Positions 5,112 to 27,232 of a stretch of DNA of 64,000 bases are shown here, one piece after another. The stretch lies in assembly GCF_988242995.1 (NCBI RefSeq), contig NZ_OZ547043.1; one strand, given 5' to 3'. Numbering within the stretch: the first letter of the stretch is position 1; every line of letters begins with the position of its first letter. Under the pieces are notes generated by a model. That model made no database searches and was not told the origin of the DNA. It was given only the letters and a program-made list of their open reading frames with translations. Made by a program: the position numbers and the translations under genes.

Positions 5112-5138
5112 TGAGTGGTTCTGCAAGAGGAAATAAGC

Positions 5139-5339
5139 ATGGACTGGCTGGCTAAATATTGGTGGATTCTGGTGATTGTCTTTTTGGTAGGCGTCCTGCT
5201 GAACGTGATTAAAGATCTCAAGCGCGTCGACCATAAGAAATTTCTCGCCAACAAGCCGGAGCTTCCCCCGCATCGTGATTTCAACGATAAGTGGGACGAT
5301 GACGACGACTGGCCGAAAAAGGATCAACCGAAGAAGTAA
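5139..5339 (+). CDS. ypfN: Small membrane protein YpfN (UPF0370)
   Basis: ORF 5115..5339; start chosen at MDWLAKYWW giving 66 aa; one TM helix and acidic C-terminus. Confidence 0.85.
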
Positions 5340-5344
5340 GCTGA

Positions 5345-5430
5345 GCGGCCGGATAAGGCGTTAACGCCGCATCCGGCAATGGTGAACGATGCCTGATACG
5401 ACGCATCACGCGTCTTATCAGGCCTACCCG
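5345..5430. repeat. REP/BIME extragenic palindromic repeats
   Basis: gccggataaggcgttaacgccgcatccggc and gcctgatacgacgcatcacgcgtcttatcaggcctac motifs. Confidence 0.8.
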
Positions 5431-5437
5431 GTTATTA

Positions 5438-6136: not shown

Positions 6137-6209
6137 GGCGAACTCCTTAACTGATGTCATTAATTTTACGCCGCTGACTCACAATGACCATGGGAGAAAA
6201 TTGAAGGAG

Positions 6210-8225: not shown

Positions 8226-8239
8226 CCCTGCCCCGGAAG

Positions 8240-9103
8240 TTAAATGCTTTTACCAAAAGTATTGCATTGTGCCGGATCGCCGCTGTCGAAACCACGTTTA
8301 AACCAGCTGTAGCGTTGCTGAGAAGTACCATGAGTGAAACTGTCTGGTACTACTCGCCCCTGACTTTGCTGTTGTAAACGGTCATCGCCGATGGCCTGCG
8401 CCGCATTCAGCGCCTCTTCCAGATCGCCGGTTTCCAGAACGCCTTGCTGCTGCATGCTATGCCCCCAGACACCGGCAAAACAGTCGGCCTGGAGTTCCAT
8501 ACGCACAGATAAGCGGTTCACTTCCGCCTGCGTCGCGTTTTGTTGCAGTTGACGAACTTTCGGCTCGATGCCTAACAGTTTCTGCACATGATGACCGACT
8601 TCATGGGCGATAACGTACCCCTGGGCAAAATCGCCATCCGCGCCAAGTTTGTCTTTCATGTCATCATAGAAGGAGAGATCGATATAAACCGTGCCATCCG
8701 CCGGGCAATAGAACGGTCCCATAATGGACTGGCCCGCCCCGCAGCCGGTGCGCGTCATTCCACGGTACATGACCAGCTTCGGTTGCTGATAGGTTTTACC
8801 CATCTTCTCGAATTGCTGTCCCCAGGTGTCTTCCGTGGTTGCCAGAATCACCGAAGTGAATTTTGCGGCTTCGTCTTCATTAGGACTAATTGACCGTGTT
8901 GATTGCTGTTGGGAAACCGGCTGTCCGGTCATCAACCCGGTTAAATCAACGCCATAGTAGCCTGCAACCAGCACGATTATCAGTAAAATCAGCCCGCCTT
9001 TACCGCTTGGCAGGCGAAAACCTGGACCGCCCATTGACGGACCACCAGAGCTGTTGCGCCTGTCTTCAACATTGTCACTTTCACGTCGCCCTTGCCAACG
9101 CAT
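8240..9103 (-). CDS. ypfJ: Putative zinc metallopeptidase YpfJ
   Basis: 287-aa ORF with N-terminal TM segment and HEVGHH zinc-binding motif. Confidence 0.88.
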
Positions 9104-9270
9104 AGATACCTCAACAATATATTCATTATAGAAATGATCGTAGGTGGTTCAGAGGAAGATTACCACAGGAAAGCGGGATGAAATGGCGGAGGAATGAGCG
9201 TTCAATGCACATCTTCCGAGAGCGGTTGTCTTGCCGTGCCAGCTGCACGGCAAGATGATGAACAGAAAAA

Positions 9271-9984
9271 TCAGTCCAGCTGTACACCCAGGCGGCGGGC
9301 GACGGCTTCATAGGCTTCGATCAGGCCACCGAGGCTCTGGCGGAAACGGTCTTTGTCCATTTTCTCCAGCGTTTCTTTGTCCCACAGGCGGCTGCCGTCC
9401 GGGGAGAACTCATCGCCCAGTACCACTTTACCTTTGTACAGGCCAAACTCCAGTTTAAAGTCGACCAAAATCAGACCAGCATCATCGAACAGTTTTTTCA
9501 GCACGTCGTTCGCTTTGTAGGTCAGCTCTTTCATACGCGCCAGGTTCTCTTTACTTACCCAGCCAAAGGTTTCGCAGTAAGATTCGTTGACCATCGGATC
9601 GTGCATGGCGTCGTTTTTCAGGAACAGATCGAACAGCGGCGGGTTCAGCTCAATACCTTCTTCGATTCCAAGACGTTTCACCAGAGAGCCAGCAGCACGG
9701 TTACGCACGACACACTCAACCGGCACCATATCCAGCTTTTTCACCAGACATTCGGTATCGGAGAGCAGACGCTCCATTTGAGTCGGGATACCCGCTTCAG
9801 CCAGTTTGCTCATAATGAAGTAGTTGAACTTGTTGTTCACCATACCTTTGCGATCAAACTGCTCAATGCGCGCGCCATCCCCTGCTGACGTATCATTGCG
9901 GAATTCGAGCACCAACAGGTCCGGGTTTTCCGTGCTGTATACGGTTTTCGCTTTACCACGATACAACTCAGCTTGCTTTTGCAT
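9271..9984 (-). CDS. purC: SAICAR synthetase
   Basis: ORF 9271..9993; start at [13 protein letters not shown] (237 aa). Confidence 0.95.
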
Positions 9985-10037
9985 CTTTATCACTCCTGGG
10001 TGTGAATTAACGTTTTAAAATCTTTTGCTGTCTGGTG

Positions 10038-10086
10038 TGCCGGATGTTTTGTCAGATGCGGCAAGAACGCCTTATCCGACCTACGT
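10038..10086. repeat. REP-like palindromic element
   Basis: tgccggatg ... gatgcggcaagaacgccttatccgacctacg. Confidence 0.6.
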
Positions 10087-10137
10087 CCGACAAACAAATT
10101 TAGTGCGAATTACCGCTAAAATCGCGTTTTCCTGCCG

Positions 10138-10153
10138 ACGCACACGTTTGCGT
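10138..10153. promoter_or_regulatory. PurR operator (PUR box) upstream of purC
   Basis: Palindrome acgcacacgtttgcgt (reverse complement acgcaaacgtgtgcgt) matching PurR box consensus. Confidence 0.7.
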
Positions 10154-10196
10154 ATCATATCAGAAAAAAGGGCCGGATGACTCCAGCCCTGTATTT

Positions 10197-11231
10197 TTAC
10201 TTGCTAAACGCAGCCTGGAAGACAGCTACCAGCGCGTCGTTCTGACTCTGAGTCAGAGTATGACCTTTCGGATCGATGAACTGTAGGCTGCTGCGGTTAT
10301 CTAAATCGCCAACCTGCAGTTTATAGTCACCGGATGCCAGGCCTGGATCGCTCGCGCCCAGTTCCTGCCAGTCGCTGTCAGACAGCGGCTTGTAAGTTAC
10401 GGCCATGTTACCCTGCGAACGGGTGCTGTCGGTCACTTTCATGCCCACTTTTTCCAGCGCCGCTGGCAGACGTTGCCAAACCACATTGAACGGCCCGCGT
10501 ACGACCAGCATCGGTAAACCGGTGTCATCAGCTGCACTTTGTACGTCCATAGTGGTGGAGGCACGATTTTGCGCAGCGTTCGCGGCGTCAGTGGCAGATT
10601 TATCCAGACCGGCGGAAATAACGTTCATCATCTCCGTGCTGTAACGCTGCATGGAAGCCGCGTCTGCAACCGGTTTGCCCGCCTGTTCCAGGTTCAGCAG
10701 TTTAACCGTAACCGCCTGCTGATAACCCTGCGGCTTAACAGAGATTTGATAACGACCACGATACTGCTCGTCTTCGTCCAGACGGTTCCATTGTACCCAA
10801 TCGGTGGTCAGTGTCTGACCAGCATCATCACGTTGGGTGATGGTGTAGTTTTTCGCCTGCAGCACGCTAACCACCTGCGGCCACAGAGTATTGCCACGAC
10901 CATTTTCCACCAGCAATGAAGCGGTATCGCCCGTGAACTGGGTACGCGCGCCAGAAACCAGTGCCAGCGGCTGGGCTGGTGGACGAATGTCCAGCGCCTT
11001 ACCGACAGCACCACTACCGTTGGTCACCGGGATTGCATAATCACCGGAGGTCACCGGCAAAATCATTCCAGCCGGGGCATGAAGCTCCGCAAGCGGTGCC
11101 GCTTCCAGGTAGGCTTCATCACCACTGACCTGACGCTTATAGCGTGAGTCAGAACTACAGGCAGCGAGTAATAAAACAAGCGAAACACCCGCAACCTTTG
11201 CCAGGCGCGACTTTTGAACAGAGTAAGCCAT
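10197..11231 (-). CDS. bamC: Outer membrane protein assembly lipoprotein BamC (NlpB)
   Basis: ORF 10197..11234; lipobox LLAAC in signal peptide; 344 aa from second Met. Confidence 0.93.
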
Positions 11232-11247
11232 CAAATCTCCCTAAACT

Positions 11248-12126
11248 TTACAGCAAACCGGCATGCTTAAGCGCCGCTCTGACCGTCTCACGACCACTGT
11301 CGGTGATTGGTGTCATTGGCAGGCGCAGCGTATCGGTCGCCACAAGACCCAGTTCCTTACATGCCCATTTCACCGGGATTGGATTGGGTTCGACAAATAG
11401 TTTGTTGTGTAATGGCATCAGACGCTGATTAATAACGCGTGCCTCGGCAAAATGCCCTTCTGCTGCCAGTTTGCACATCTGGGCCATATCACGCGCTGCG
11501 ACGTTAGCCGTAACGGAAATAACCCCATGACCGCCTAATTGCATGAAGTCCAGCGCGCTCGCATCATCGCCGCTCAGCAGAACAAAATCATCTGAAACCA
11601 GCTCTTTGATCTGGTTTACACGCGTTAAGTTCCCTGTTGCCTCTTTGATTCCGATAATATTTTTTACTTTCGCCAGACGGCCCACCGTTTCCGGGAGCAG
11701 ATCGCAGCCAGTACGGGACGGCACATTATACAGAATTTGCGGCAGGTCAGTATGTTCAGCGATGGCTTTGAAATGCTGATACAAACCTTCTTGCGACGGA
11801 CGATTGTAGTAAGGGGTTACCGTCAGGCAGCCGACGATACCACTGTCATTGAAGCGCTGCGTCAGGCTAATGGCTTCCACAGTAGCGTTAGCGCCGGTCC
11901 CGGCAATCACCGGAATGCGCCCGTCAGCCAGCTCCAGCGTCATCATCACCACATCAGCATGTTCGTCATGATTTAAGGTAGCGGACTCGCCAGTGGTGCC
12001 AACAGAAACGATCGCCGAAGTACCGCTGGCGACATGATAATCAATCAGTTTTTTCAAGCTAGCCCGACAGACATTACCTTTTTCATCCATCGGAGTAACA
12101 ATCGCGACAATACTTCCCGTGAACAT
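11248..12126 (-). CDS. dapA: 4-hydroxy-tetrahydrodipicolinate synthase
   Basis: ORF 11248..12144; start at [13 protein letters not shown] (292 aa). Confidence 0.95.
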
Positions 12127-12271
12127 GGGCCATCCTCTGTGCAAACAAGTGTCTCAATGGTACGTTTGGTATGGCATTAAAAGCAAGCAGACAGAACCGT
12201 TCTGATTGTTGTATGCATGTTTTTTTTATGCTTTCCTTAAGAACAACTCACCCCTTAAAGGAATAACCAGT

Positions 12272-12844
12272 TTGACACTGTCATCGCAACATTATCTGGT
12301 GATCACTGCGTTGGGTGCCGATCGCCCTGGAATTGTGAACACCATCACCCGTCATGTCAGTAGTTGCGGCTGTAATATTGAAGACAGTCGCCTGGCGATG
12401 CTGGGAGAAGAGTTCACGTTTATCATGCTGCTTTCCGGTTCATGGAATGCCATTACTCTGATTGAATCAACGTTACCGTTGAAAGGTGCCGAGCTGGATC
12501 TTTTAATCGTGATGAAGCGCACGACGGCGCGTCCGCGTCCGCCAATGCCAGCATCTGTCTGGGTTCAGGTCGATGTGGCAGACTCCCCGCATTTAATTGA
12601 ACGCTTCACAGCACTTTTCGACGCGCATCATATGAACATTGCGGAGCTGGTGTCACGCACGCAACCTGCTGAAAATGAACGGGCTGCGCAGTTGCATATT
12701 CAGATAACCGCCCACAGCCCCGCATCTGCGGACGCAGCAAATATTGAGCAAGCGTTCAAAGCCCTATGTACAGAACTCAATGCACAAGGCAGTATTAACG
12801 TCGTCAATTATTCCCAACATGATGAACAGGATGGAGTTAAGTAA
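12272..12844 (+). CDS. gcvR: Glycine cleavage system transcriptional repressor GcvR; probable TTG start
   Basis: ORF 12206..12844; LTLSSQHYLVITALGADRPGIV matches GcvR N-terminus, start inferred at the TTG codon (190 aa). Confidence 0.85.
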   Translation: MTLSSQHYLVITALGADRPGIVNTITRHVSSCGCNIEDSRLAMLGEEFTFIMLLSGSWNAITLIESTLPLKGAELDLLIVMKRTTARPRPPMPASVWVQVDVADSPHLIERFTALFDAHHMNIAELVSRTQPAENERAAQLHIQITAHSPASADAANIEQAFKALCTELNAQGSINVVNYSQHDEQDGVK

Positions 12845-13314
12845 TGAATCCACTGAAAGCCGGTGATATCGCACCGAAATTTAGCTTGCCGGATCAAGAC
12901 GGAGAACAAGTTAATTTGACCGACTTCCAGGGACAGCGTGTTCTGGTTTATTTCTACCCGAAAGCCATGACCCCCGGCTGTACCGTACAGGCCTGCGGCT
13001 TACGCGATAACATGGATGAGTTGAAAAAAGCGGGCGTTGATGTGCTGGGTATCAGCACCGATAAACCCGAAAAACTCTCCCGTTTTGCGGAAAAAGAGCT
13101 GCTTAACTTTACGCTCCTGTCTGATGAGGACCACCAGGTGTGCGAACAATTCGGCGTCTGGGGTGAAAAGTCCTTCATGGGCAAAACCTACGATGGTATT
13201 CATCGCATCAGCTTCCTGATTGACGCTGATGGCAAAATCGAACATGTCTTTGACGATTTCAAAACCAGCAATCACCACGACGTTGTGCTGAACTGGCTGA
13301 AAGAACACGCCTGA
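12844..13314 (+). CDS. bcp: Peroxiredoxin Bcp (thiol peroxidase)
   Basis: 156-aa ORF with PGCT peroxidatic Cys motif; start overlaps gcvR stop (TAATG). Confidence 0.95.
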   Translation: MNPLKAGDIAPKFSLPDQDGEQVNLTDFQGQRVLVYFYPKAMTPGCTVQACGLRDNMDELKKAGVDVLGISTDKPEKLSRFAEKELLNFTLLSDEDHQVCEQFGVWGEKSFMGKTYDGIHRISFLIDADGKIEHVFDDFKTSNHHDVVLNWLKEHA

Positions 13315-13509
13315 TTACTTTGCTCCATTCCGTGCTGGCTGCGCTTGCGGTCAGCACACCTCACTTCTCGTGATCAAGATCACATTCTCGCTTTCCCCTG
13401 CGACACGGGTGTCGAATTCATTTTTTGCTGAACGTTAATGACCATCATTTTTGTACCGTTCAGAATCCAGTTAATACATAACTTATTGAATATATTAAAT
13501 TAATCAGAC

Positions 13510-13526
13510 TGGCATCCTTTATGCAA
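13510..13526 (+). promoter_or_regulatory. Sigma54 (-24/-12) promoter of the hyf operon
   Basis: tGGcatcctttatGCaa: GG and GC elements 10 nt apart, ~40 nt upstream of hyfA start; hyfR (sigma54 activator) encoded at the operon end. Confidence 0.7.
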
Positions 13527-13566
13527 TATGAAATGCAATGTTTCATATCATTTTCAAGGAGCCGAC

Positions 13567-14184
13567 ATGAACCGCTTTGTGGTGGCCGAACCACTGTGGT
13601 GTACAGGATGTAATACCTGTCTCGCTGCCTGTTCGGACGTGCATAAAACGCAAGGTTTACAGCAACACCCGCGCCTGGCCCTGGCGAAGACGTCAACACT
13701 CACTGCCCCTGTCGTGTGTCATCACTGTGAGGAAGCCCCTTGCCTGCAGGTCTGCCCGGTCAATGCCATCTCCCAGAGGGATGATGCGATCCAACTCAAC
13801 GAAAGCCTTTGTATTGGCTGCAAGCTTTGCGCCGTGGTCTGCCCATTTGGCGCAATCAGCGCTACAGGAAGCCGTCCGGTGAATGCCCCTGCGCAATATG
13901 TTTTTCAGTCTGAGGGCTCACTCAAAGACGGAGAAGTAAACGCGCCGACCCAACATGCTTTGCTGCGCTGGGAACCGGGTGTCCAGACCGTCGCGGTGAA
14001 ATGCGACCTGTGTGATTTCTTGCCAGGAGGTCCGGCCTGCGTTCGCGCTTGCCCGAATCAGGCGTTACGGCTGATCACCGACGATAGCCTGCAACGTCAG
14101 ATGAAAGAAAAACAGCGCCTTGCCGCAAGCTGGTTTGCCAATGGCGGGGAGGATCCCCTTTCCCTCACTCAGGAGCAACGCTAA
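13567..14184 (+). CDS. hyfA: Hydrogenase-4 component A, 4Fe-4S ferredoxin-type
   Basis: ORF 13528..14184; start at MNRFVVAEP (205 aa); multiple CxxCxxCxxxCP clusters. Confidence 0.93.
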   Translation: MNRFVVAEPLWCTGCNTCLAACSDVHKTQGLQQHPRLALAKTSTLTAPVVCHHCEEAPCLQVCPVNAISQRDDAIQLNESLCIGCKLCAVVCPFGAISATGSRPVNAPAQYVFQSEGSLKDGEVNAPTQHALLRWEPGVQTVAVKCDLCDFLPGGPACVRACPNQALRLITDDSLQRQMKEKQRLAASWFANGGEDPLSLTQEQR

Positions 14185-16202
14185 TGGATGCCCTGCAATT
14201 ATTAACCTGGTCGCTGATCCTCTATCTGTTTGCCAGTCTGGCTTCGCTGTTTTTACTCGGTCTGGACAGACTGGCTATTAAGCTTTCCGGCATCACATCG
14301 CTGGTGGGTGGCGTGATTGGCATCATCAGCGGAATTACGCAATTACATGCAGGCGTAACTTTAGTCGCCCGTTTTGCCACGCCTTTTGACTTTGCCGATT
14401 TAACCCTGCGAATGGATAGCCTCTCGGCATTTATGGTGCTGGTTTTCTCCTTGCTGGTGGTGGTTTGTTCGCTCTATTCATTGACTTATATGCGCGAATA
14501 CGAGGGCAAAGGCGCGGCGGCGATGGGCTTCTTTATGAATCTTTTCATCGCATCGATGGTTGCCCTGCTGGTGATGGACAACGCTTTTTGGTTCATCGTG
14601 CTGTTTGAAATGATGTCGCTGTCTTCCTGGTTTCTGGTCATTGCCAGGCAGGATAAAACGTCAATCAACGCTGGCATGCTCTACTTTTTTATCGCCCACG
14701 CCGGATCGGTGCTGATTATGATCGCCTTCTTGCTGATGTGGCGCGAAAGCGGCAGCCTCGATTTTGCCAGTTTCCGCACGCTTTCACTTTCTCCGGGGCT
14801 GGCGTCGGCGGTGTTCCTGCTGGCCTTCTTCGGTTTTGGCGCGAAAGCCGGGATGATGCCGTTGCACAGCTGGTTGCCACGCGCTCACCCTGCCGCACCA
14901 TCGCACGCTTCGGCGTTGATGTCTGGCGTAATGGTCAAAATCGGTATTTTCGGCATCCTGAAAGTAGCGATGGACCTGCTGGCGCAAACGGGTTTGCCGC
15001 TGTGGTGGGGCATTCTGGTGATGGCGATCGGCGCAATCTCCGCGCTCCTGGGCGTGCTGTATGCGCTGGCGGAACAGGATATCAAACGGCTGCTGGCCTG
15101 GAGTACCGTCGAAAACGTCGGCATTATTTTGCTGGCGGTCGGTGTGGCGATGGTCGGTCTGTCACTGCACGACCCGCTGCTCACCGTTGTTGGACTGCTC
15201 GGCGCGCTGTTTCATCTGCTCAACCATGCGCTGTTCAAAGGGCTGCTGTTTCTCGGCGCGGGCGCGATTATTTCGCGTTTGCATACCCACGACATGGAAA
15301 AAATGGGGGCACTGGCAAAACGGATGCCGTGGACAGCCGCAGCATGCCTGATTGGTTGCCTCGCGATATCAGCCATTCCTCCGCTGAATGGTTTTATCAG
15401 CGAATGGTACACCTGGCAGTCGCTGTTCTCACTAAGTCGTGTGGAAGCCGTAGCGCTACAACTTGCGGGTCCTATTGCTATGGTGATGCTGGCAGTCACT
15501 GGTGGGCTGGCAGTAATGTGCTTCGTCAAAATGTACGGTATTACTTTCTGTGGAGCGCCGCGCAGTACACACGCTGAAGAGGCACAGGAAGTGCCAAATA
15601 CGATGATCGTCGCCATGCTACTGCTCGCGGCACTCTGCGTATTCATTGCGCTTAGTGCCAGTTGGCTAGCACCGAAGATAATGCACATTGCCCATGCGTT
15701 TACCAATACCCCTCCCGTCACTGTCGCCAGCGGAATAGCACTTGTACCCGGCACGTTTCATACACGGGTCACTCCCTCATTACTGTTGCTGTTACTACTG
15801 GCAATGCCTTTGCTGCCTGGCCTTTACTGGCTATGGTGTCGTTCGCGCCGCGCAGCGTTTCGTCGCACAGGAGATGCCTGGGCATGCGGCTACGGCTGGG
15901 AAAATGCGATGGCCCCGTCAGGCAATGGCGTGATGCAGCCGCTGCGTGTGGTCTTTTGTGCGCTATTTCGTCTACGACAACAGCTCGACCCTACGCTGAG
16001 GCTGAACAAAGGTCTTGCGCACGTCACCGCCAGGGCTCAGAGCACAGAACCCTTCTGGGATGAGCGGGTGATCCGCCCCATCGTGAGCGCCACCCAACGG
16101 CTGGCCAAAGAAGTACAGCATCTGCAAAGCGGCGACTTTCGTCTCTATTGCCTGTATGTGGTTGCCGCACTGGTTGTGCTGCTAATCGCTATTGCCGTCT
16201 AA
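14184..16202 (+). CDS. hyfB: Hydrogenase-4 membrane subunit B (NuoL/MrpA-like antiporter subunit)
   Basis: 672-aa polytopic membrane ORF. Confidence 0.93.
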   Translation: MDALQLLTWSLILYLFASLASLFLLGLDRLAIKLSGITSLVGGVIGIISGITQLHAGVTLVARFATPFDFADLTLRMDSLSAFMVLVFSLLVVVCSLYSLTYMREYEGKGAAAMGFFMNLFIASMVALLVMDNAFWFIVLFEMMSLSSWFLVIARQDKTSINAGMLYFFIAHAGSVLIMIAFLLMWRESGSLDFASFRTLSLSPGLASAVFLLAFFGFGAKAGMMPLHSWLPRAHPAAPSHASALMSGVMVKIGIFGILKVAMDLLAQTGLPLWWGILVMAIGAISALLGVLYALAEQDIKRLLAWSTVENVGIILLAVGVAMVGLSLHDPLLTVVGLLGALFHLLNHALFKGLLFLGAGAIISRLHTHDMEKMGALAKRMPWTAAACLIGCLAISAIPPLNGFISEWYTWQSLFSLSRVEAVALQLAGPIAMVMLAVTGGLAVMCFVKMYGITFCGAPRSTHAEEAQEVPNTMIVAMLLLAALCVFIALSASWLAPKIMHIAHAFTNTPPVTVASGIALVPGTFHTRVTPSLLLLLLLAMPLLPGLYWLWCRSRRAAFRRTGDAWACGYGWENAMAPSGNGVMQPLRVVFCALFRLRQQLDPTLRLNKGLAHVTARAQSTEPFWDERVIRPIVSATQRLAKEVQHLQSGDFRLYCLYVVAALVVLLIAIAV

Positions 16203-16212
16203 GGAAATCACC

Positions 16213-17160
16213 ATGAGACAAACTCTTTGCGACGGATATCTGATCATTTTTGCGTTAGCACAGGCCGTGATTCTGCTGGTGCTAACCCCGCTTTTTACGG
16301 GGATTTCCCGGCAGATACGCGCGCGAATGCACTCCCGTCGCGGACCGGGGATCTGGCAGGATTATCGCGATATCCACAAACTGTTTAAACGCCAGGAAGT
16401 TGCGCCGACATCTTCAGGTCTGATGTTCCGCCTGATGCCGTGGGTATTAATCAGCAGCATGCTGGTGCTGGCGATGGCCCTACCACTATTTATTACCGTT
16501 TCCCCTTTTGCGGGCGGCGGCGATCTGATCACCCTTATCTATCTTCTTGCCCTGTTTCGTTTTTTCTTTGCTCTTTCAGGGCTGGATACCGGAAGCCCGT
16601 TTGCGGGAGTCGGTGCCAGTCGCGAGTTGACGCTCGGCATTCTGGTCGAACCCATGCTCATTCTCTCAATGCTGGTATTGGCGCTGATAGCGGATTCCAC
16701 GCATATCGAGATGATCAGCAAGACGCTGGCGACGGGCTGGAACTCGCCGCTAACCACCGTACTGGCGTTACTGGCCTGTGGTTTTGCCTGCTTCATTGAG
16801 ATGGGAAAAATTCCCTTTGATGTTGCTGAAGCAGAACAGGAATTACAGGAAGGCCCGCTAACCGAATATTCCGGTGCCGGGCTGGCGCTAGCGAAATGGG
16901 GGCTGGGGCTGAAACAGGTCGTGATGGCAGCACTGTTTGTGGCCCTGTTTCTGCCCTTTGGGCGCGCGCAAGAACTTTCTCTCGCCTGCCTGCTGACTTC
17001 ACTTGTCGTTACGCTGCTCAAGGTTTTGCTGATTTTTGTACTGGCCTCAATCGCAGAAAACACGCTGGCACGCGGGCGTTTTTTACTCATTCACCATGTG
17101 ACCTGGCTTGGCTTCAGCCTTGCTGCGCTTGCATGGGTCTTCTGGTTAACCGGTCTGTAA
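16213..17160 (+). CDS. hyfC: Hydrogenase-4 membrane subunit C (NuoH-like)
   Basis: ORF 16192..17160; start at MRQTLCDGY (315 aa). Confidence 0.9.
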   Translation: MRQTLCDGYLIIFALAQAVILLVLTPLFTGISRQIRARMHSRRGPGIWQDYRDIHKLFKRQEVAPTSSGLMFRLMPWVLISSMLVLAMALPLFITVSPFAGGGDLITLIYLLALFRFFFALSGLDTGSPFAGVGASRELTLGILVEPMLILSMLVLALIADSTHIEMISKTLATGWNSPLTTVLALLACGFACFIEMGKIPFDVAEAEQELQEGPLTEYSGAGLALAKWGLGLKQVVMAALFVALFLPFGRAQELSLACLLTSLVVTLLKVLLIFVLASIAENTLARGRFLLIHHVTWLGFSLAALAWVFWLTGL

Positions 17161-17176
17161 GGAGCACTGACGGAAT

Positions 17177-18616
17177 ATGGAAAATCTTGCTCTGACGACG
17201 TTAATGCTGCCTTTTATCGGCGCACTGGTCGTTTCGTTTTCGCCACAACGTCGGGCCGCCGAATGGGGGGTTTTGTTCGCCGCGCTGACCACGCTGTGCA
17301 TGTTGTCACTGATCTCCGCGTTTTATCAGGCCGATAAAGTTGCCGTCACGTTGACGTTGGTCAACGTGGGGGATGTGGCGTTGTTTGGCCTGGTCATTGA
17401 TCGCGTGAGTACGCTGATTCTGTTTGTGGTGGTGTTTCTCGGTTTGCTGGTCACGATCTACTCCACGGGTTATCTGACGGATAAAAATCGCGAACACCCG
17501 CATAACGGCACGAATCGTTATTACGCATTTTTGCTGGTGTTTATCGGCGCGATGGCGGGACTGGTACTCTCTTCGACGCTGCTCGGTCAGTTGTTGTTTT
17601 TTGAAATTACGGGCGGCTGCTCCTGGGCGTTGATCAGTTATTACCAGAGCGATAAAGCGCAGCGTTCGGCACTAAAAGCGTTGCTTATTACCCATATCGG
17701 TTCGTTGGGGTTGTATCTTGCCGCCGCCACGCTGTTTTTGCAGACCGGAACGTTTGCGCTTAGCGCGATGAGCGAGTTACACGGCGACGCACGTTATCTG
17801 GTTTATGGCGGCATCCTGTTTGCCGCGTGGGGGAAATCGGCCCAGCTACCGATGCAAGCGTGGCTACCGGATGCAATGGAAGCGCCAACACCGATCAGCG
17901 CCTATCTCCACGCCGCATCGATGGTGAAAGTGGGCGTTTACATTTTTGCCCGTGCCATTATCGACGGCGGCAATATCCCGCATGTGATTGGCGGCGTTGG
18001 CATGGTTATGGCACTGGTCACCATTCTTTATGGCTTCCTGATGTATTTGCCACAGCAGGATATGAAGCGGTTGCTGGCCTGGTCGACCATCACTCAACTT
18101 GGCTGGATGTTTTTCGGCTTGTCGCTCTCCATCTTCGGCTCGCGGCTGGCGCTGGAGGGTAGCATCGCTTACATCGTCAACCACGCGTTCGCTAAAAGCC
18201 TGTTTTTCCTTGTAGCAGGTGCGCTGAGTTACAGCTGCGGCACGCGCTTGTTGCCGCGTCTGCGTGGCGTATTGCACACCCTGCCGTTGCCAGGCGTGGG
18301 TTTCTGCGTGGCAGCGCTGGCAATTACCGGCGTGCCGCCGTTCAACGGCTTCTTCAGTAAATTCCCGCTGTTTGCTGCCGGTTTTGCGTTGTCAGTGGAG
18401 TACTGGATCCTGCTGCCCGCCATGATTCTGCTGATGATTGAATCGGTCGCCAGTTTCGCCTGGTTTATTCGCTGGTTTGGTCGCGTCGTGCCTGGCAAAC
18501 CTAGCGAGGCCGTCGCCGATGCCGCTCCGCTGCCAGGATCAATGCGCCTGGTGTTGATTGTACTGATTGTGATGTCGCTGATTTCCAGCGTAATCGCCGC
18601 GACCTGGTTGCAGTAA
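17177..18616 (+). CDS. hyfD: Hydrogenase-4 membrane subunit D (NuoM/N-like)
   Basis: 479-aa polytopic membrane ORF. Confidence 0.92.
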   Translation: MENLALTTLMLPFIGALVVSFSPQRRAAEWGVLFAALTTLCMLSLISAFYQADKVAVTLTLVNVGDVALFGLVIDRVSTLILFVVVFLGLLVTIYSTGYLTDKNREHPHNGTNRYYAFLLVFIGAMAGLVLSSTLLGQLLFFEITGGCSWALISYYQSDKAQRSALKALLITHIGSLGLYLAAATLFLQTGTFALSAMSELHGDARYLVYGGILFAAWGKSAQLPMQAWLPDAMEAPTPISAYLHAASMVKVGVYIFARAIIDGGNIPHVIGGVGMVMALVTILYGFLMYLPQQDMKRLLAWSTITQLGWMFFGLSLSIFGSRLALEGSIAYIVNHAFAKSLFFLVAGALSYSCGTRLLPRLRGVLHTLPLPGVGFCVAALAITGVPPFNGFFSKFPLFAAGFALSVEYWILLPAMILLMIESVASFAWFIRWFGRVVPGKPSEAVADAAPLPGSMRLVLIVLIVMSLISSVIAATWLQ

Positions 18617-18627
18617 GGAGATGATGA

Positions 18628-19278
18628 ATGACCGGTTCTATGATCGTAAATAATCTGGCAGGACTGATGATGCTGACATCGCTGTTTGTGATTAGCGTCA
18701 AAAGCTATCGCCTGTCATGCGGATTTTACGCCTGCCAGTCACTGGTGCTGGTGTCTATTTTCGCCACCCTCTCGTGCCTGTTCGCCGCAGAGCAACTGCT
18801 GATCTGGTCCGCCAGCGCCTTTATCACCAAAGTGCTGCTGGTGCCGTTAATCATGACTTACGCTGCACGAAATATTCCCCAGAACATCCCGGAAAAAGCG
18901 TTATTCGGTCCGGCAATGATGACACTGCTCGCGGCGTTAATTGTCCTGCTTTGCGCATTTGTCGTTCAGCCCGTGAAGCTACCGATGGCTACCGGGCTGA
19001 AACCGGCGCTGGCGGTGGCGTTAGGTCATTTTCTGCTTGGCCTGCTGTGCATTGTCAGCCAGCGCAATATCCTGCGGCAAATCTTTGGTTACTGCCTGCT
19101 GGAAAACGGCTCCCATCTGGTGCTGTCGCTTCTAGCCTGGCGTGCACCGGAACTGGTGGAAATTGGTATCGCTACCGACGCCATCTTCGCCGTCATTGTA
19201 ATGGTGTTACTGGCAAGAAAAATATGGCGTACCCACGGCACGCTGGACGTGAACAACTTGACCGCGCTGAAGGGATAA
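18628..19278 (+). CDS. hyfE: Hydrogenase-4 membrane subunit E
   Basis: 216-aa membrane ORF. Confidence 0.92.
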
Positions 19279-19282
19279 TGAG

Positions 19283-20863
19283 ATGAGTTATTCTGTGATG
19301 TTCGCTTTACTCCTGCTCACGCCGCTGCTTTTTTCGCTGCTCTGTTTTGCCTGCCGAAAACGGGGGCACTCTGCGACTCGCGCGGTGACAGTATTACATA
19401 GCTTAGGGATCACACTGCTGCTGATTCTGGCACTCTGGGTGGTCCAAACTGCCGCTGATGCGGGAGAAATATTCGCTGCGGGACTGTGGCTTCATATTGA
19501 TGGTCTGGGCGGTTTGTTCCTCGCCATTCTTGGTGTGATTGGCTTTCTCACCGGTGTTTACTCGATTGGCTACATGCGTCATGAAGTGGAGCACGGCGAG
19601 CTTTCACCCGTTACGCTGTGCGATTACTACGGTTTCTTCCATCTGTTTTTGTTCACCATGCTGCTGGTTGTTACCAGCAATAACCTGATTGTGATGTGGG
19701 CGGCGATCGAAGCCACCACCTTAAGCTCGGCGTTTCTGGTAGGCATTTACGGTCAGCGTTCATCGCTGGAAGCTGCATGGAAGTACATCATTATTTGTAC
19801 TGTTGGTGTCGCTTTTGGTCTGTTCGGTACCGTGCTGGTATACGCCAACGCCGCCAGCGTTATGCCGCAGGCAGAAATGGCGATATTCTGGAGCGAGGTT
19901 CTTAAGCAATCGTCCTTGCTTGACCCAACATTAATGCTGTTGGCCTTTGTGTTTGTGCTAATTGGCTTTGGCACTAAAACCGGGCTATTCCCCATGCACG
20001 CCTGGCTGCCAGATGCTCACAGTGAAGCGCCGAGTCCGGTCAGCGCCCTGCTCTCCGCCGTATTGCTGAACTGCGCGCTGTTGGTGCTTATTCGCTATTA
20101 CATCATTATTTGCCAGGCCATCGGCAGCGATTTCCCCAACCGGTTGTTGCTCATCTTCGGCATGTTGTCGGTTGCCGTGGCGGCATTTTTCATTCTGGTA
20201 CAGCGGGACATTAAGCGTCTGCTGGCGTACTCCAGCGTGGAGAACATGGGACTGGTCGCGGTGGCGCTAGGCATTGGCGGGCCGCTGGGAATTTTTGCCG
20301 CGCTGCTGCACACCTTAAACCACAGTCTGGCAAAAACGCTGTTGTTCTGCGGTTCCGGCAATGTACTGCTCAAGTACGGCACGCGCGATCTCAACGTCGT
20401 CTGCGGAATGCTTAAAATCATGCCATTTACCGCCGTGTTGTTTGGCGGCGGTGCGCTGGCGCTGGCCGGGATGCCGCCCTTCAACATTTTTCTTAGCGAA
20501 TTTATGACCGTTACCGCCGGACTGGCGCGTAATCATCTGCTGCTTATCGTCCTGCTGTTATTGCTGTTAACGCTGGTGCTGGCGGGCCTGGTACGGATGG
20601 CTGCGCGGGTGTTAATGGCGAAACCGCCGCAGGCCGTTAACCGGGGTGAACTTGGCTGGTTGACCACCTCGCCAATGGTGATTCTGCTGGTCATGATGCT
20701 GGCGATGGGAACGCATATTCCACAACCTGTCATCAGGATCCTGGCGGGCGCTTCCACTATAGTCCTCTCAGGGACGCACGACCTGCCTGCACAACGTAGC
20801 ACCTGGCATGATTTTTTGCCTTCAGGCACCGCATCTGTTTCGGAGAAACACAGTGAACGTTAA
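19283..20863 (+). CDS. hyfF: Hydrogenase-4 membrane subunit F (NuoN/MrpD-like)
   Basis: 526-aa membrane ORF. Confidence 0.92.
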
Positions 20864-22568
20864 TTCATCGTCAAATCGTGGCGAAGCGATTCTCGCCGCC
20901 CTGAAAACGCAGTTCCCCGGCGCGGTGCTGGATGAAGAGCGACAAACGCCTGAACAGGTCACCATTACGGTGAAAATCAATCTGCTGCCTGACGTTGTGC
21001 ATTATCTTTATTATCAACATGATGGCTGGCTTCCAGTCCTGTTTGGCAACGACGAGCGGACACTTAACGGTCATTACGCGGTTTATTATGCCCTTTCTAT
21101 GGAAGGGGCCGAAAAATGCTGGATCGTGGTGAAGGCACTGGTCGATGCCGACAGTCGGGAGTTTCCGTCAGTCACACCGCGCGTCCCTGCCGCGGTCTGG
21201 GGCGAGCGAGAAATTCGCGATATGTACGGGCTGATTCCGGTTGGCCTGCCGGATCAGCGTCGCCTGGTGTTGCCCGATGACTGGCCGGAAGATATGCATC
21301 CGCTGCGCAAAGATGCGATGGATTATCGACTGCGCCCTGAACCGACGACTGATTCCGAAACGTATCCGTTTATCAATGAGGGCAACAGCGATGCGCGGGT
21401 GATCCCTGTCGGCCCGATGCATATCACCTCCGATGAACCGGGTCACTTCCGCTTGTTTGTGGATGGCGAGCAAATTGTCGATGCTGATTACCGCCTGTTT
21501 TATGTCCATCGCGGCATGGAGAAACTGGCAGAAACGCGGATGGGCTACAACGAAGTGACCTTCTTATCCGACCGCGTGTGTGGGATTTGCGGTTTTGCCC
21601 ACAGTGTGGCCTATACCAACTCGGTTGAAAATGCACTGGGGATTGAGGTGCCGCAACGAGCGCATACTATTCGCTCGATTCTGCTGGAAGTCGAACGGCT
21701 GCATAGTCATTTGCTCAACCTTGGCCTCTCCTGCCATTTTGTTGGTTTTGATACCGGCTTTATGCAATTTTTCCGCGTGCGGGAAAAGTCGATGACGATG
21801 GCGGAATTGCTGACCGGGTCGCGTAAAACCTACGGTCTGAATCTGATTGGTGGTGTTCGCCGCGATATTCTCAAAGAGCAACGTCTGCAAACGCTGAAAC
21901 TGGTGCGCGAGATGCGCGCCGACGTGTCGGAGCTGGTAGAGATGCTACTTGCCACGCCGAATATGGAACAACGCACTCAGGGCATTGGCATTCTCGACCG
22001 ACAAATCGCCCGTGATTATAGCCCCGTAGGGCCGCTGATCCGCGGCAGTGGTTTTGCCCGTGATTTGCGCTTTGATCACCCCTACGCCGACTACGGCAAT
22101 ATTCCCAAAACGCTGTTTACCTTTACCGGCGGCGATGTCTTCTCCCGCGTGATGGTCCGTGTCAAAGAGACGTTTGATTCGCTGGCAATGCTGGAATTTG
22201 CCCTCGACAACATGCCAGATACCCCACTGCTGACCGAAGGCTTTAGCTATAAACCTCACGCATTCGCGCTGGGCTTTGTTGAAGCGCCACGTGGTGAAGA
22301 CGTGCACTGGAGCATGCTCGGTGATAACCAAAAATTGTTCCGCTGGCGCTGTCGTGCCGCCACCTACGCCAACTGGCCAGTGCTGCGTTACATGCTGCGC
22401 GGCAATACCGTTTCTGACGCACCGCTAATTATCGGTAGCCTTGATCCCTGCTACTCCTGTACCGACCGTGTGACGCTGGTTGATGTGCGCAAGCGCCAGT
22501 CAAAAACCGTGCCGTATAAAGAGATCGAACGCTACGGCATTGATCGTAACCGTTCGCCGCTGAAGTAA
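20853..22568 (+). CDS. hyfG: Hydrogenase-4 large catalytic subunit (NiFe, NuoC/D-like fusion); start uncertain
   Basis: ORF 20808..22568; GTG at 20853 overlaps hyfF stop and fits a HycE-like N-terminus; RxCGxCxxxH and DPCxxC Ni-binding motifs. Confidence 0.88.
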
Positions 22569-22577
22569 GGACAGAAA

Positions 22578-23123
22578 ATGCTGAAGTTACTTAAAACTAT
22601 TATGCGCGCCGGAACCGCGACGGTGAAATATCCCTTCGCGCCACTGGAGGTCAGCCCAGGCTTTCGCGGGAAACCGGACCTGATGCCCAGCCAATGTATT
22701 GCCTGCGGTGCCTGCGCCTGTGCTTGTCCGGCAAATGCGCTGACTATCCAGACCGACGACCAGCAAAATACGCGCACCTGGCAGCTCTATCTGGGGCGTT
22801 GTATTTACTGCGGACGTTGTGAAGAAGTGTGCCCGACCAGAGCCATCCAGCTTACCAATAACTTTGAACTGACCGTCACCAATAAAGCCGATCTCTATAC
22901 CCGCGCGACGTTCCATCTACAACGTTGCAGCCGTTGCGAACGCCCGTTTGCCCCGCAAAAAACCGTCGCACTGGCTGCTGAATTGTTGGCACAGCAACAA
23001 AATGCGCCACAAAACCGCGAAATGTTATGGGCGCAAGCGAGCGTCTGCCCGGAGTGCAAACAACGCGCGACGCTGATCAACGACGATACAGATGTACCGC
23101 TGGTGGCTAAGGAGCAGCTATGA
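22578..23123 (+). CDS. hyfH: Hydrogenase-4 Fe-S subunit H (NuoI-like)
   Basis: 181-aa ORF with two CxxCxxCxxxCP motifs. Confidence 0.93.
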
Positions 23124-23878
23124 GTCCAGTGCTTACGCAACATGTCAGCCAGCCCATCACGCTGGACGAGCAAACGCAAAAGATGAAGCAGCATTTGCTA
23201 CAGGATATCCGTCGCTCGGCTTACGTTTATCGCGTCGATTGCGGCGGCTGCAACGCCTGTGAAATCGAAATTTTTGCTGCCATCACACCCGTATTCGACG
23301 CAGAACGTTTTGGCATTAAGGTTGTTTCATCACCGCGTCACGCCGATATTTTGTTATTTACTGGCGCAGTCACCCGAGCGATGCGTATGCCTGCACTTCG
23401 GGCGTATGAGTCTGCCCCCGATCATAAAATTTGTGTTTCCTACGGCGCGTGCGGTGTCGGCGGCGGTATTTTCCACGATCTTTACAGCGTCTGGGGCGGC
23501 AGCGACACCATTGTCCCCATTGATGTTTGGATCCCCGGCTGCCCGCCAACACCGGCCGCCACCATTCACGGTTTCGCCGTGGCGCTCGGTTTGCTGCAAC
23601 AGAAGATTCACGCTGTGGATTATCGCGATCCCACCGAGGTAACCATGCAACCGCTATGGCCACAGATCCCGCCATCACAGCGTATCGCCATTGAGCGAGA
23701 AGCGCGGCGGCTGGCGGGCTATCGTCAGGGGCGAGAAATTTGCGATCGGCTCCTGCGCCATTTAAGCGACGATCCTACAGGAAATCGGGTTAACACCTGG
23801 TTGCGCGAAGCCGACGATCCGCGTCTCAATAGTATCGTTCAGCAACTCTTTCGCGTTCTCCGGGGGTTACATGGCTGA
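23120..23878 (+). CDS. hyfI: Hydrogenase-4 small subunit I (NuoB-like)
   Basis: 252-aa ORF; start overlaps hyfH stop (ATGA). Confidence 0.93.
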
Positions 23879-24284
23879 GGAGTGCGGGGAAATTGTTTTC
23901 TGGACGCTGCGAAAAAAATTTATCGCCAGTAGCGACGAGATGCCGGAACACAGCTCCCAGGTAATGTATTACTCGTTGGCTATCGGTCATCACGTTGGCG
24001 TGATTGATTGTCTGAATGTCGCCTTCTGCTGCCCACAGACGGAATACGAAGATTGGCTTGCACAGGTCGAAGAGGAGCAAGCCCGACGTAAGATGCTGGG
24101 GGTGATGACCTTTGGTGAGATTGTTATTGACGCCAGCCATACCGCCCTGTTGACCCGGGCATTCGCGCCACTGGCAGATGACGCGACGTCTGTGTGGCAA
24201 GCGCGTAGCATTCAATTCATTCATCTGTTGGATGAAATTGTGCAGGAACCGGCTATCTATCTGATGGCCAGAAAAATTGCGTGA
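23871..24284 (+). CDS. hyfJ: Hydrogenase-4 maturation/HycH-like protein
   Basis: 137-aa ORF overlapping hyfI end by 8 nt. Confidence 0.88.
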
Positions 24285-24313
24285 GAAGGATTTCTCATTA
24301 ATAAGGACTGTTG

Positions 24314-26326
24314 ATGGCTATGTCAGACGAGGCGATGTTTGCCCCGCCGCAAGGAATAACAATTGAAGCGGTAAACGGAATGCTCGCGGAGCGGTTAGCA
24401 CAGAAACACGGCAAGGCGTCTTTATTACGCGCCTTCATCCCGCTGCCGCCGCCGTTCAGCCCGGTACAACTTATTGAACTGCATGTTCTCAAAAGCAACT
24501 TCTATTACCGCTACCATGATGATGGCAGCGATGTGACGGCAACAACAGAGTATCAGGGCGAGATGGTCGATTATTCGCGTCACGCCGTCCTTCTCGGCAG
24601 TAGTGGAATGGCGGAGCTACGCTTTATTCGTACCCACGGCAGTCGTTTTACTCCCCAGGATTGCACACTGTTTAACTGGCTGGCACACATAATCACTCCG
24701 GTTCTGCAATCATGGCTCAATGATGAAGAACAGCAGGTGGCGCTGCGTTTGCTGGAGAAAGATCGCGATCATCATCGGGTACTGGTGGATATCACTAATG
24801 CAGTATTGTCACATCTTGATCTCGACGATCTGATCGCTGACGTCGCTCGTGAGATCCATCATTTTTTCGGTCTGGCTTCAGTCAGTATGGTACTGGGCGA
24901 TCATCGAAAGAACGAGAAGTTCAGCCTGTGGTGCAGCGATCTTTCTGCCTCACATTGTGCGTGTCTGCCACGCTGTATGCCTGGCGAAAGTGTATTGCTG
25001 ACACAAACGCTACAAACCCGACAACCGACCTTGACGCACCGTGCAGACGATCTGTTTCTCTGGCAACGCGACCCGTTATTACACTTACTTGCATCTAACG
25101 GCTGCGAATCTGCGCTCCTTATACCGCTCACCTTTGGCAACCATACACCGGGCGCATTGTTGCTGGCGCATACCTCTTCCACTCTCTTTAGTGAGGAAAA
25201 CTGCCAGCTACTACAACATATTGCCGATCGCATCGTTATTGCCGTTGGCAATGCCGATGCCTGGCGCAGCATGACCGATTTGCAGGAAAGCTTGCAGCAA
25301 GAAAACCACCAGCTTAGCGAGCAGCTCCTTTCGAATCTGGGCGTCGGTGACATTATCTATCAAAGCCAGGCAATGGAAGATTTGCTCCAGCAGGTAGATA
25401 TTGTGGCGAAGAGCGACAGTACGGTGTTGATTTGTGGTGAAACCGGAACCGGCAAAGAGGTGATCGCCAGAGCGATCCATCAACTTAGCCCACGACGCGA
25501 CAAGCCACTGGTCAAAATCAACTGCGCTGCCATCCCCGCCAGTCTTCTGGAAAGTGAGTTATTCGGTCATGACAAAGGGGCATTTACTGGTGCGATTAAT
25601 ACCCATCGTGGTCGTTTTGAAATTGCCGATGGCGGCACGTTGTTTCTCGATGAAATTGGCGATCTGCCGTTAGAACTTCAGCCTAAACTGCTGCGCGTAT
25701 TGCAGGAACGGGAGATTGAGCGTCTCGGCGGGAGTAGAACGATCCCGGTAAATGTCAGAGTCATTGCCGCCACCAACCGTGATTTGTGGCAAATGGTTGA
25801 AGATCGCCAGTTTCGCAGCGATCTCTTTTATCGCCTGAATGTCTTCCCACTGGAACTGCCGCCACTGCGCGACCGTCCGGAAGATATCCCTCTTTTAGCA
25901 AAGCATTTCACGCAAAAAATGGCGCGCCATATGAATCGCGCAATTGACGCCATCCCGACCGAGGCGCTACGCCAGTTGATGTCGTGGGACTGGCCGGGCA
26001 ACGTGCGCGAGCTGGAAAACGTGATTGAGCGAGCGGTACTACTGACTCGCGGTAACAGTCTGAATTTACATCTTAATGTCCGACAAAGCCGTTTACTGCC
26101 GACGCTAAATGAAGATTCAGCGCTTCACAGTTCAATGGCGCAGTTGCTGCACCCGACGACGCCAGAGAATGACGAAGAAGAACGTCAGCGCATTGTTCAG
26201 GTATTGCGAGAAACCAATGGCATTGTTGCCGGGCCCCGTGGCGCGGCGACGCGATTAGGGATGAAGCGCACCACGCTGCTGTCACGAATGCAGCGGCTGG
26301 GGATCTCGGTTCGCGAGGTGTTGTAA
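24314..26326 (+). CDS. hyfR: Sigma54-dependent transcriptional activator of the hyf operon (FhlA-like; GAF + AAA+ + HTH)
   Basis: ORF 24311..26326; GETGTGKE Walker A, GAFTGA sigma54-interaction motif, C-terminal Fis-type HTH. Confidence 0.92.
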
Positions 26327-26347
26327 TCTGTTTTTGCAGGAGTATGC

Positions 26348-27196
26348 ATGAGAAACAAACTCTCTTTCGACTTGCAGTTGAGCGCCAGAAAAGCGGCAAT
26401 CGCTGAACGGATTGCCGCCCATAAAATTGCCCGCAGTAAAGTGTCGGTCTTTTTAATGGCGATGTCCGCAGGCGTGTTTATGGCGATCGGATTTACTTTT
26501 TACCTTACCGTTATCGCCGATGCCCCGTCTTCACAGGCATTAACCCATCTGGTGGGCGGCCTTTGCTTTACGCTCGGCTTTATTTTGCTGGCGGTTTGCG
26601 GCACCAGCCTGTTCACCTCGTCGGTAATGACGGTGATGGCAAAAAGTCGGGGCGTTATTAGCTGGCGAACATGGCTGATTAATGCACTTCTGGTGGCCTG
26701 CGGTAATCTGGCAGGTATTGCCTGTTTCAGTTTGTTAATCTGGTTTTCCGGGCTGGTGATGAGTGAAAACGCGATGTGGGGAGTCGCGGTTTTACACTGC
26801 GCCGAGGGCAAAATGCATCATACATTTACTGAATCAGTCAGCCTCGGCATTATGTGCAATCTGATGGTTTGCCTGGCGCTGTGGATGAGTTATTGCGGGC
26901 GTTCATTATGCGACAAAATCGTCGCCATGATTTTGCCCATCACGCTGTTTGTCGCCAGTGGCTTTGAGCACTGTATCGCCAATTTGTTTGTGATTCCGTT
27001 CGCCATTGCCATTCGCCATTTCGCCCCTACCTCCTTCTGGCAACTGGCGCACAGTAGCGCAGACCATTTTCCGGTACTGACGGTCAGCCATTTTATTACC
27101 GCCAATCTGCTCCCGGTGATGCTGGGTAATATTATCGGCGGTGCAGTGCTGGTGAGTATTTGTTATCGGGCTATTTATTTACGTCAGGAACCCTAA
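26348..27196 (+). CDS. focB: Formate channel FocB (FNT family)
   Basis: 282-aa membrane ORF recognised as FocB. Confidence 0.92.
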   Translation: MRNKLSFDLQLSARKAAIAERIAAHKIARSKVSVFLMAMSAGVFMAIGFTFYLTVIADAPSSQALTHLVGGLCFTLGFILLAVCGTSLFTSSVMTVMAKSRGVISWRTWLINALLVACGNLAGIACFSLLIWFSGLVMSENAMWGVAVLHCAEGKMHHTFTESVSLGIMCNLMVCLALWMSYCGRSLCDKIVAMILPITLFVASGFEHCIANLFVIPFAIAIRHFAPTSFWQLAHSSADHFPVLTVSHFITANLLPVMLGNIIGGAVLVSICYRAIYLRQEP

Positions 27197-27232
27197 AAAT
27201 CAGCCCGGCGAAAAAGTTCGTCGGGCTGAAGA

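Follow-up and report, generated by a model that had tools for sequence, protein, structure and literature searches.

Gene content and organisation of the hyf locus

The window, as the whole stretch of DNA analysed here is called, comprises 64,000 nucleotides (nt) of contig NZ_OZ547043.1 and carries, between bcp and yfgO, the genes of hydrogenase-4 (Hyd-4). Positions 13567-27196 contain hyfABCDEFGHIJ-hyfR-focB, colinear with the locus of Escherichia coli K-12 MG1655, and represent, with high probability, the chromosomal E. coli hyf operon in its intact ancestral form. All 12 genes align end to end with those of K-12 MG1655 at 96-98.5% nucleotide identity, gapless except in hyfG, and the 12 translated reading frames are open, with proper start and stop codons and no internal stops. 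The RefSeq annotation of near-identical genomes, the closest being that of isolate AF39, and of K-12 MG1655 makes the same call for every gene, and the Pfam domains of all 12 products are those expected for hyf. The original prediction of an intact set of ten hyfA-J genes with hyfR and focB was borne out, and no frameshift or stop was found on realignment in any of the 12 genes. It was also right that the hyf system is not novel; the system is already known, and the allele of the window is common and annotated. K-12, in turn, had been taken as an intact but silent comparator, which does not hold: its hyfG carries an evidently derived 48-nt deletion, and K-12-like lineages have further lesions. 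As the K-12 copy is not intact, an intact hyf operon in the window is more noteworthy than had been supposed.

All genes of the locus lie on the plus strand. The catalytic part of the enzyme includes the [NiFe] large subunit HyfG (20853-22568, 571 amino acids (aa)), encoded by a full-length ancestral allele with a GTG start, and the NuoB-like small subunit HyfI (23120-23878, 252 aa; Pfam Oxidored_q6). Two ferredoxin-type proteins are encoded by hyfA (13567-14184, 205 aa), a multi-[4Fe-4S] protein similar to HycB, and by hyfH (22578-23123, 181 aa), a HycF-like protein with two [4Fe-4S] clusters. The membrane arm consists of three antiporter-like subunits with the Pfam domain Proton_antipo_M, HyfB (14184-16202, 672 aa), HyfD (17177-18616, 479 aa) and HyfF (19283-20863, 526 aa), together with the NuoH/HycD-like HyfC (16213-17160, 315 aa; NADHdh) and the NuoK-like HyfE (18628-19278, 216 aa; Oxidored_q2). 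HyfD, HyfE and HyfF are specific to formate hydrogenlyase-2 (FHL-2), for which HyfE serves as a marker (10.1101/563510). The hyfJ gene (23871-24284, 137 aa) codes for a HycH-like maturation protein with the Pfam domain HycH.

The locus has its own activator, as had been predicted and as RefSeq annotation and Pfam concur. HyfR (24314-26326, 670 aa) is a sigma-54 enhancer-binding protein of the GAF plus AAA+ type, with the Pfam domains GAF and Sigma54_activat (E = 4.3e-75) and the GAFTGA motif at residue 422. By eye, its C-terminus resembles a Fis-type helix-turn-helix; no helix-turn-helix family of Pfam was matched at E <= 1e-5. FocB (26348-27196, 282 aa) is a channel of the formate/nitrite transporter family, residues 20-273 of which match Form_Nir_trans (E = 4.1e-64). 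A hairpin with a 13-bp stem (27200-27229, plus strand), lying between the convergent focB and yfgO genes, is the best terminator-like site in the region.

The operon is tightly packed throughout, although the extensive overlaps that had been described are confined to four of the 11 gene junctions, namely hyfA/B (1 nt), hyfF/G (11 nt), hyfH/I (4 nt) and hyfI/J (8 nt). The remaining seven junctions have gaps of 4-29 nt. The hyfA start at 13567 matches the annotation and is conserved in all orthologues, as are the start sequence ATGAACCGCTTT and the preceding AAGGAG, while the first ATG of the open reading frame, at 13528, is not used. The start of hyfG had been called ambiguous, and two candidates in the same frame do exist, ATG 20808 and GTG 20853, the latter preceded by GGAG at 20840-20843. 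An upstream GTG start occurs in 12 of the 13 orthologues inspected, accompanied in the closest relatives by a GGAG-type site. In seven of these 12, in-frame stops lie 5' of the GTG, and the 15 additional codons that ATG 20808 would give are therefore not a conserved feature. A GUG start of hyfG was also stated by Finney et al. 2019 (PMC7384014). The comparison of orthologues thus resolves the predicted start to GTG 20853.

The HyfG catalytic subunit and the state of hyf in E. coli

HyfG contains the Pfam domains Complex1_30kDa, Complex1_49kDa and NiFeSe_Hases, the NuoC-like part being fused at the N-terminus. The nickel-ligand motifs are present (Cys243/246 and DPCYSC at 531-536), and the translation ends in a C-terminal extension with the sequence TDR/VTLVDV, corresponding to the type of HyfG cleavage site given in PMC7384014. 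The top solved relative is HycE (7Z0S), which aligns over the whole length (phmmer 973.7 bits, E = 2.5e-292). None of the 248 positions found to be invariant in a set of 34 orthologues is changed in HyfG of the window.

The K-12 protein has 555 aa instead of 571, the difference being 48 in-frame nt (22018-22065 of the window, plus strand) that encode 16 residues including Arg397. The segment is flanked by 10-bp direct repeats, GCCCGTGATT, at 22008-22017 and 22056-22065, the signature of a repeat-mediated deletion. It is present without gaps in all of the 80 best HyfG-encoding loci from other species, and also in HycE, in Pyrococcus MbhL and in the complex I 49-kDa/NuoD subunit (...GP(I/L)LRGSG..DLR...); in an alignment of 35 sequences, ten of the 16 residues never vary. 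The 48-nt difference is thus evidently a derived deletion in K-12, and the window retains what is judged to be the ancestral state. In HycE, residues R478, D529, H284, E437 and R395 (NDUFS2 R297) form a conserved proton pathway from the [NiFe] site (Steinhilper et al. 2022, PMC9474812). The HyfG equivalents R480, D531, H286, E439 and R397, of which R397 was matched to HycE Arg395 after chain 7Z0S_E had been corrected for a 12-residue tag insertion, are all invariant and all present in the window, while K-12 lacks R397. Altogether, K-12-type HyfG has lost ten of the 248 invariant positions and carries T321I at another invariant site, and O111-type HyfG has P196L in addition. An AlphaFold2 model of HyfG built from the 35-sequence alignment was too poor (mean pLDDT, the predicted local distance difference test, 66.7) to address the role of the deleted segment and was not used.

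Among 5,426 complete E. coli genomes searched by megablast, the hyfG region is absent from 1,132 (about 21%), the same 48-nt deletion occurs in about 2,115 (about 39%), including K-12, BL21 and O111:H8, and hyfG is full-length in 2,179 (40%); the whole operon is intact in five of eight sampled genomes with full-length hyfG. The hyf locus of E. coli is therefore a mosaic, being absent, decaying or intact in different strains. Its absence from phylogroup B2 is already known (PMC2617782). In sequence type 131, which belongs to this phylogroup, bcp abuts yfgO, and the 97-nt spacer holds a degraded remnant of the hyf upstream region (window 13315-13432). The remnant extends to GCTGAA and is joined at GCTGAAG downstream of focB (window 27222-27232), a short direct repeat. 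The degraded remnant and the direct-repeat junction indicate that hyf was lost from B2 by deletion and not inserted elsewhere.

Fifteen loci, the window and 14 others, were grouped by synonymous divergence at the hyf locus, not by a genome phylogeny. The window-like cluster contains AF39, O166:H15, WP4-S18 and KGu016 besides the window, the O157-like cluster O157:H7 and O169:H41, and the K-12-like cluster K-12, BL21, O111:H8, 2013C_3963, 14EC047, LH09-a, PI24 and 2013C-3033. Lesions were counted from our own alignments rather than from RefSeq pseudogene flags, since nanopore assemblies yield false frameshifts. The seven loci that make up the first two clusters have all 12 genes intact, whereas each of the eight K-12-like loci has at least one lesion, and the lesions are shared among them in a mosaic fashion. 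The 48-nt hyfG deletion is found in five K-12-like strains, a -1 frameshift in hyfD at 17265 in four, BL21 among them, a -1 frameshift in hyfI at 23467 in five and a -1 frameshift in hyfC in two. K-12-like strains also contain nonsense codons in hyfF, hyfE, hyfI and hyfR, a 208-nt deletion in hyfD, a 6-nt deletion in hyfH, and focB frameshifts. None of the eight lacks both the hyfG deletion and the hyfD frameshift. K-12 itself has only the hyfG deletion and T321I, with its 12 frames open, while the four other deletion-bearing strains sampled all carry additional nonsense or frameshift lesions. The recurrent lesions are common to independent assemblies, including BL21 and PacBio assemblies of the Centers for Disease Control and Prevention; several others were seen in one assembly only. 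A homopolymer in focB at about 27028 differs by +1 or -1 nt in LH09-a, PI24 and 14EC047, representing either a frameshift hotspot or a long-read assembly error.

The ratio of derived nonsynonymous to synonymous changes is 105/143 (0.73) in the K-12-like cluster, compared with 84/195 (0.43) and 24/51 (0.47) in the intact clusters (Fisher p = 0.003). In this small sample the difference fits purifying selection that has continued in the lineage of the window and has been relaxed in the K-12-like lineage. As judged from these comparisons, the K-12/B/B1-like hyf copies are decaying. A single amino-acid change, HyfR H257L, has become fixed in the K-12-like cluster; it was considered as a cause of silencing and rejected, the site being variable in orthologues (Q, H, L, K and others).

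The window and AF39 are 99.98% identical over positions 1-13062 and differ by a single mismatch from hyfA to hyfG and by 67 mismatches from hyfH to focB, a pattern that points to a probable recombination breakpoint at the hyfG/hyfH boundary, near window position 22570. Outside the hyf locus, yfgI and guaA are separated in AF39 by an insert of 3.4 kb that encodes an AAA ATPase, a response regulator and an integrase fragment, in place of which the window has 757 nt (43329-44086). Between xseA and der (window about 48790-60160), colinearity with AF39 identifies an 8-kb gene encoding adhesion domains, a SinI-family gene and sinH, an intimin-like inverse autotransporter gene.

The bcp-hyfA spacer and its predicted promoter

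A sigma-54 -24/-12 element, TGGCAT-ccttt-ATGCA, is located at 13510-13525 on the plus strand and ends 41 nt before the hyfA start codon. Its GG and GC doublets are 10 nt apart, which is the canonical spacing, and 14 of the 16 positions (11 specified bases) agree with the consensus TGGCAC-N5-TTGCA. The bare motif is not above chance in the window, with 28 matches at up to two mismatches against 29.3 expected, so motif statistics alone would not suffice, and the promoter was assigned from its position, its identity to that of K-12 and its conservation across species. Of 71 orthologous loci from other Enterobacterales, 64 carry the pattern TGGCA[CT]-N5-nTGC[AT] 54-104 nt before hyfA; by our own estimate, the chance of finding it in that position is about 0.01 per sequence. 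No sigma-70-like promoter match was found in the spacer. The good -24/-12 element that had been predicted some 40 nt upstream of hyfA, and was to be aligned with K-12, proved identical there. We consider it a genuine sigma-54 element and predict rpoN-dependent transcription in the source strain. Skibinski and colleagues reportedly placed, in 2002, the hyf transcript start of K-12 30 nt upstream of hyfA, which corresponds to about 13537 here and would put the GC doublet at -13/-12, and hyf transcription in K-12 is said to depend on rpoN and the activator. In vitro, the top peak of RpoN holoenzyme in genomic systematic evolution of ligands by exponential enrichment (gSELEX) is the K-12 bcp-hyfA spacer (PMC8743547).

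The exact 87-nt promoter allele of the window occurs in 222 complete genomes. Just 5' of the -24 box, three substitutions at 13497, 13499 and 13509 (A>G, A>G and C>A) are fixed in all eight K-12-like loci and absent from the seven intact ones, and the K-12-like loci have two more at 13351 and 13357, near the end of bcp. The C-to-A change at 13509 was considered as a promoter defect of the K-12-like loci and set aside, since the closest outgroups carry A or T and no clear polarity emerges. A different variant is found in O157:H7 (TT12B), in which the 12 hyf genes are intact and the -24 box reads TGACAT, owing to a GG to GA change at 13512; positions 13507 and 13526 are altered as well. Sakai, EDL933 and Xuzhou21 are among the 139 complete genomes that have exactly this 87-nt allele.

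The rest of the spacer was examined by aligning it with the closest non-E. coli loci, which gave seven species with 65% identity overall. The most conserved element is the block TGACCATCAyTTTTG (13439-13453, plus strand), identical in the seven species at 14 of its 15 positions and a possible second activator site. A candidate HyfR/FhlA upstream activating site is the inverted repeat CGACAC-gg-GTGTCG (13401-13414, plus strand), about 130 nt upstream of the inferred transcript start, in which CGACA...TG.CG is invariant in the seven species. Its sequences GTGTCGA / CGACACGG are common to the FhlA-dependent hyc-hyp and hydN regions of K-12, and heptamers in common with known FhlA-dependent regions are, by our estimate, about as frequent as chance predicts. 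Many of the orthologous loci have comparable TGTCG/CGACA repeats at -138 to -200. Further upstream, a candidate CRP-like palindrome, cGTGA-TCAAGA-TCACA (13369-13384, plus strand), was read from the sequence; both half-sites are kept in Citrobacter (TGTGA-N6-TCACA) and the TCACA half in Kosakonia and Phytobacter. Between the candidate activator sites and the -24 box, a candidate IHF-like site on the minus strand (13479-13491) reads ATTCAATAAGTTA, compared with the IHF consensus WATCAANNNNTTR; its AAC...TGA is invariant in the alignment, and in Citrobacter the site matches the consensus at every position. The ribosome-binding site of hyfA, AAGGAG (13556-13561, plus strand), overlaps GGAGCC, which is invariant across species and stands directly before the conserved start ATGAACCGCTTT. 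This layout is tentatively regarded as what an enhancer-dependent promoter would show, with the activator, CRP and IHF sites as putative elements. For the FhlA/HyfR-type sites sought upstream, the candidates are a conserved inverted repeat and a conserved block that fit the published FhlA consensus poorly.

Predicted activity of hydrogenase-4 and its relation to known systems

The operon encodes Hyd-4, the hydrogenase part of FHL-2. This enzyme belongs to group 4a of the [NiFe]-hydrogenases, has a membrane arm resembling complex I and would evolve H2. The hyf operon of K-12 MG1655 (b2481-b2492) lies at the same site with the same 12 genes in the same order and has an identical -24/-12 core and identical conserved upstream blocks, but its hyfG lacks the 48 nt and carries T321I, and the three substitutions just 5' of the -24 box set it apart. 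Within E. coli, the hyc operon for formate hydrogenlyase-1 (hydrogenase-3) offers a second comparison: HycE matches the Cys motifs, proton-pathway residues and C-terminal extension of HyfG, and both operons have a sigma-54 promoter with FhlA-type upstream sites, those of hyf being candidates. However, hyf has three antiporter-like subunits and HyfE where hyc has one such subunit, as well as its own activator and a formate channel, and it lacks a protease gene and HycA.

The FHL-2 loci of Pectobacterium atrosepticum and Trabulsiella guamensis share the hyfA-J order, a HyfG that is 80-85% identical, the GTG start and the sigma-54 element. Unlike the window, they carry the protease gene hyfK and no focB, and their hyfR is encoded on the other strand. 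Among the loci compared, hyfR-focB was found downstream on the same strand only in E. coli, some Citrobacter, Klebsiella indica, Kosakonia and Phytobacter. In a contig scan, no representative of an Escherichia species was among the 80 best HyfG-encoding loci; the nearest of these belong to Citrobacter spp. and Klebsiella indica, with HyfG identities of 91-92% but only 57-73% for HyfA, HyfB and FocB. Operons of the hyf type from Pectobacterium and Trabulsiella are active formate hydrogenlyases (PMC7384014, 10.1101/563510). The Trabulsiella operon functions in E. coli with E. coli FdhH (Lindenstrauss and Pinske, 10.1101/563510), and Pectobacterium HyfG is matured by E. coli HycI (PMC7654741), so E. 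coli is a competent host.

Under anaerobic, acidic and formate-replete conditions, HyfR and/or FhlA would occupy the conserved sites further upstream (about 13401-13453), a bend in the DNA would form at the IHF-like site, and the activators would remodel sigma-54 holoenzyme at 13510-13525, with transcription starting near 13537. The packed cistrons may then be translated as one unit, HyfG being made from GTG 20853. HyfG would take up the Ni-Fe cofactor and be cleaved after Arg539, presumably by HycI encoded elsewhere, as the hyf locus has no protease gene of its own. Together with FdhH, the complex would oxidise formate and evolve H2.

In the literature, hyf of K-12 counts as silent or inactive. 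Finney et al. 2020 placed Phyc or PT5 before hyfA in derivatives of MG1655 and MC4100, exchanged the HyfG C-terminus for that of HycE using hyfG nt 1-1569, and observed no H2 (PMC7654741). They concluded that there are 'additional, unknown, biosynthetic problems' for K-12 Hyd-4 (PMC7654741). The 1-1569 nt that precede the cleavage site correspond to the 555-aa, deleted allele. Skibinski and colleagues are said to have found, in 2002, no Ni-labelled HyfG even after 1,000-fold induction. We tentatively propose that the failure to detect Hyd-4 in E. coli may reflect the broken K-12 allele, with its 16-residue deletion, T321I and relaxed selection, and that window-type operons could be assembled and active. 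No mention of the hyfG deletion or of hyf pseudogenisation was found in the literature covered, which did not extend to older subscription papers, so an earlier description is possible.

Several points weigh against the general reading of the locus and the mechanism outlined above. Hyd-4 activity has never been directly demonstrated in any E. coli strain, the work having been done in K-12 (PMC7654741, 10.1101/563510). Neither a hycI-like protease gene nor a formate dehydrogenase gene was found in the hyf locus, in the open reading frame list or the annotation. The published FhlA consensus TGWC-N6-GWCA (PMC7658346) has one match of seven out of eight positions, at 13392, which is a weak fit, and the putative activator, CRP and IHF sites are tentative, as their assignment draws on conservation and resemblance only. 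The selection contrast, finally, comes from 15 loci in clusters defined by the locus itself.

The most serious rival, which we regard as rather doubtful, is that the operon, intact by sequence, is cryptic in the source strain too. On that reading, something other than the hyfG deletion, for instance weak native expression, the want of a dedicated protease or some other assembly problem, would keep Hyd-4 silent or prevent its assembly throughout E. coli. K-12 hyf has been called silent and strong promoters were no help (PMC7654741), no hycI-like gene lies in the hyf locus, and the GG to GA change in O157:H7 illustrates that intact genes need not mean expression. Against this, all the negative experiments used the deleted K-12 allele, E. 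coli HycI and FdhH serve heterologous HyfG and FHL-2, and the low ratio of nonsynonymous to synonymous changes and the complete lack of lesions in the window-like and O157-like clusters suggest ongoing selection on the proteins. It is improbable that the K-12 deletion is tolerated and K-12 Hyd-4 functional, which would make the distinction between intact and deleted alleles physiologically meaningless. The 12 open frames that K-12 keeps apart from the deletion and T321I could be taken in this sense, as could physiological papers reporting effects of hyf mutations on K-12 H2 production (e.g. PMC10758574), but the deletion removes the equivalent of HycE Arg395 (PMC9474812) with nine other invariant residues, direct assays detected no Hyd-4 H2 production in K-12 (PMC7654741), and all four other deletion-bearing strains sampled gained nonsense or frameshift lesions. 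That the 48 nt were instead inserted or duplicated in the lineage of the window, K-12 being the original, is practically refuted: 10-bp direct repeats could in principle come from a duplication, but the 38 nt between them are no copy of neighbouring sequence, and the encoded residues, ten of 16 invariant, occur in all 80 other-species loci, HycE, MbhL and the complex I 49-kDa/NuoD subunit.

If the explanation by a broken K-12 allele is true, restoring the 48 nt in K-12 or expressing the allele of the window would give Hyd-4 activity. Hyd-4/FHL-2 of E. coli is discussed as a progenitor of respiratory complex I and has been resistant to biochemical study since 1997. In a 2025 review, FHL-2 is still depicted as a complex that works in E. 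coli (PMC11841067). The intact hyf operon represents the ancestral state and is held by only part of the species, the reference strain K-12 not being intact. This mosaic of intact, decaying and absent loci matters wherever 'hyf presence' is scored as a metabolic trait, and the K-12 lesion may account for the old puzzle of a 'silent Hyd-4', a hypothesis that is cheaply testable.

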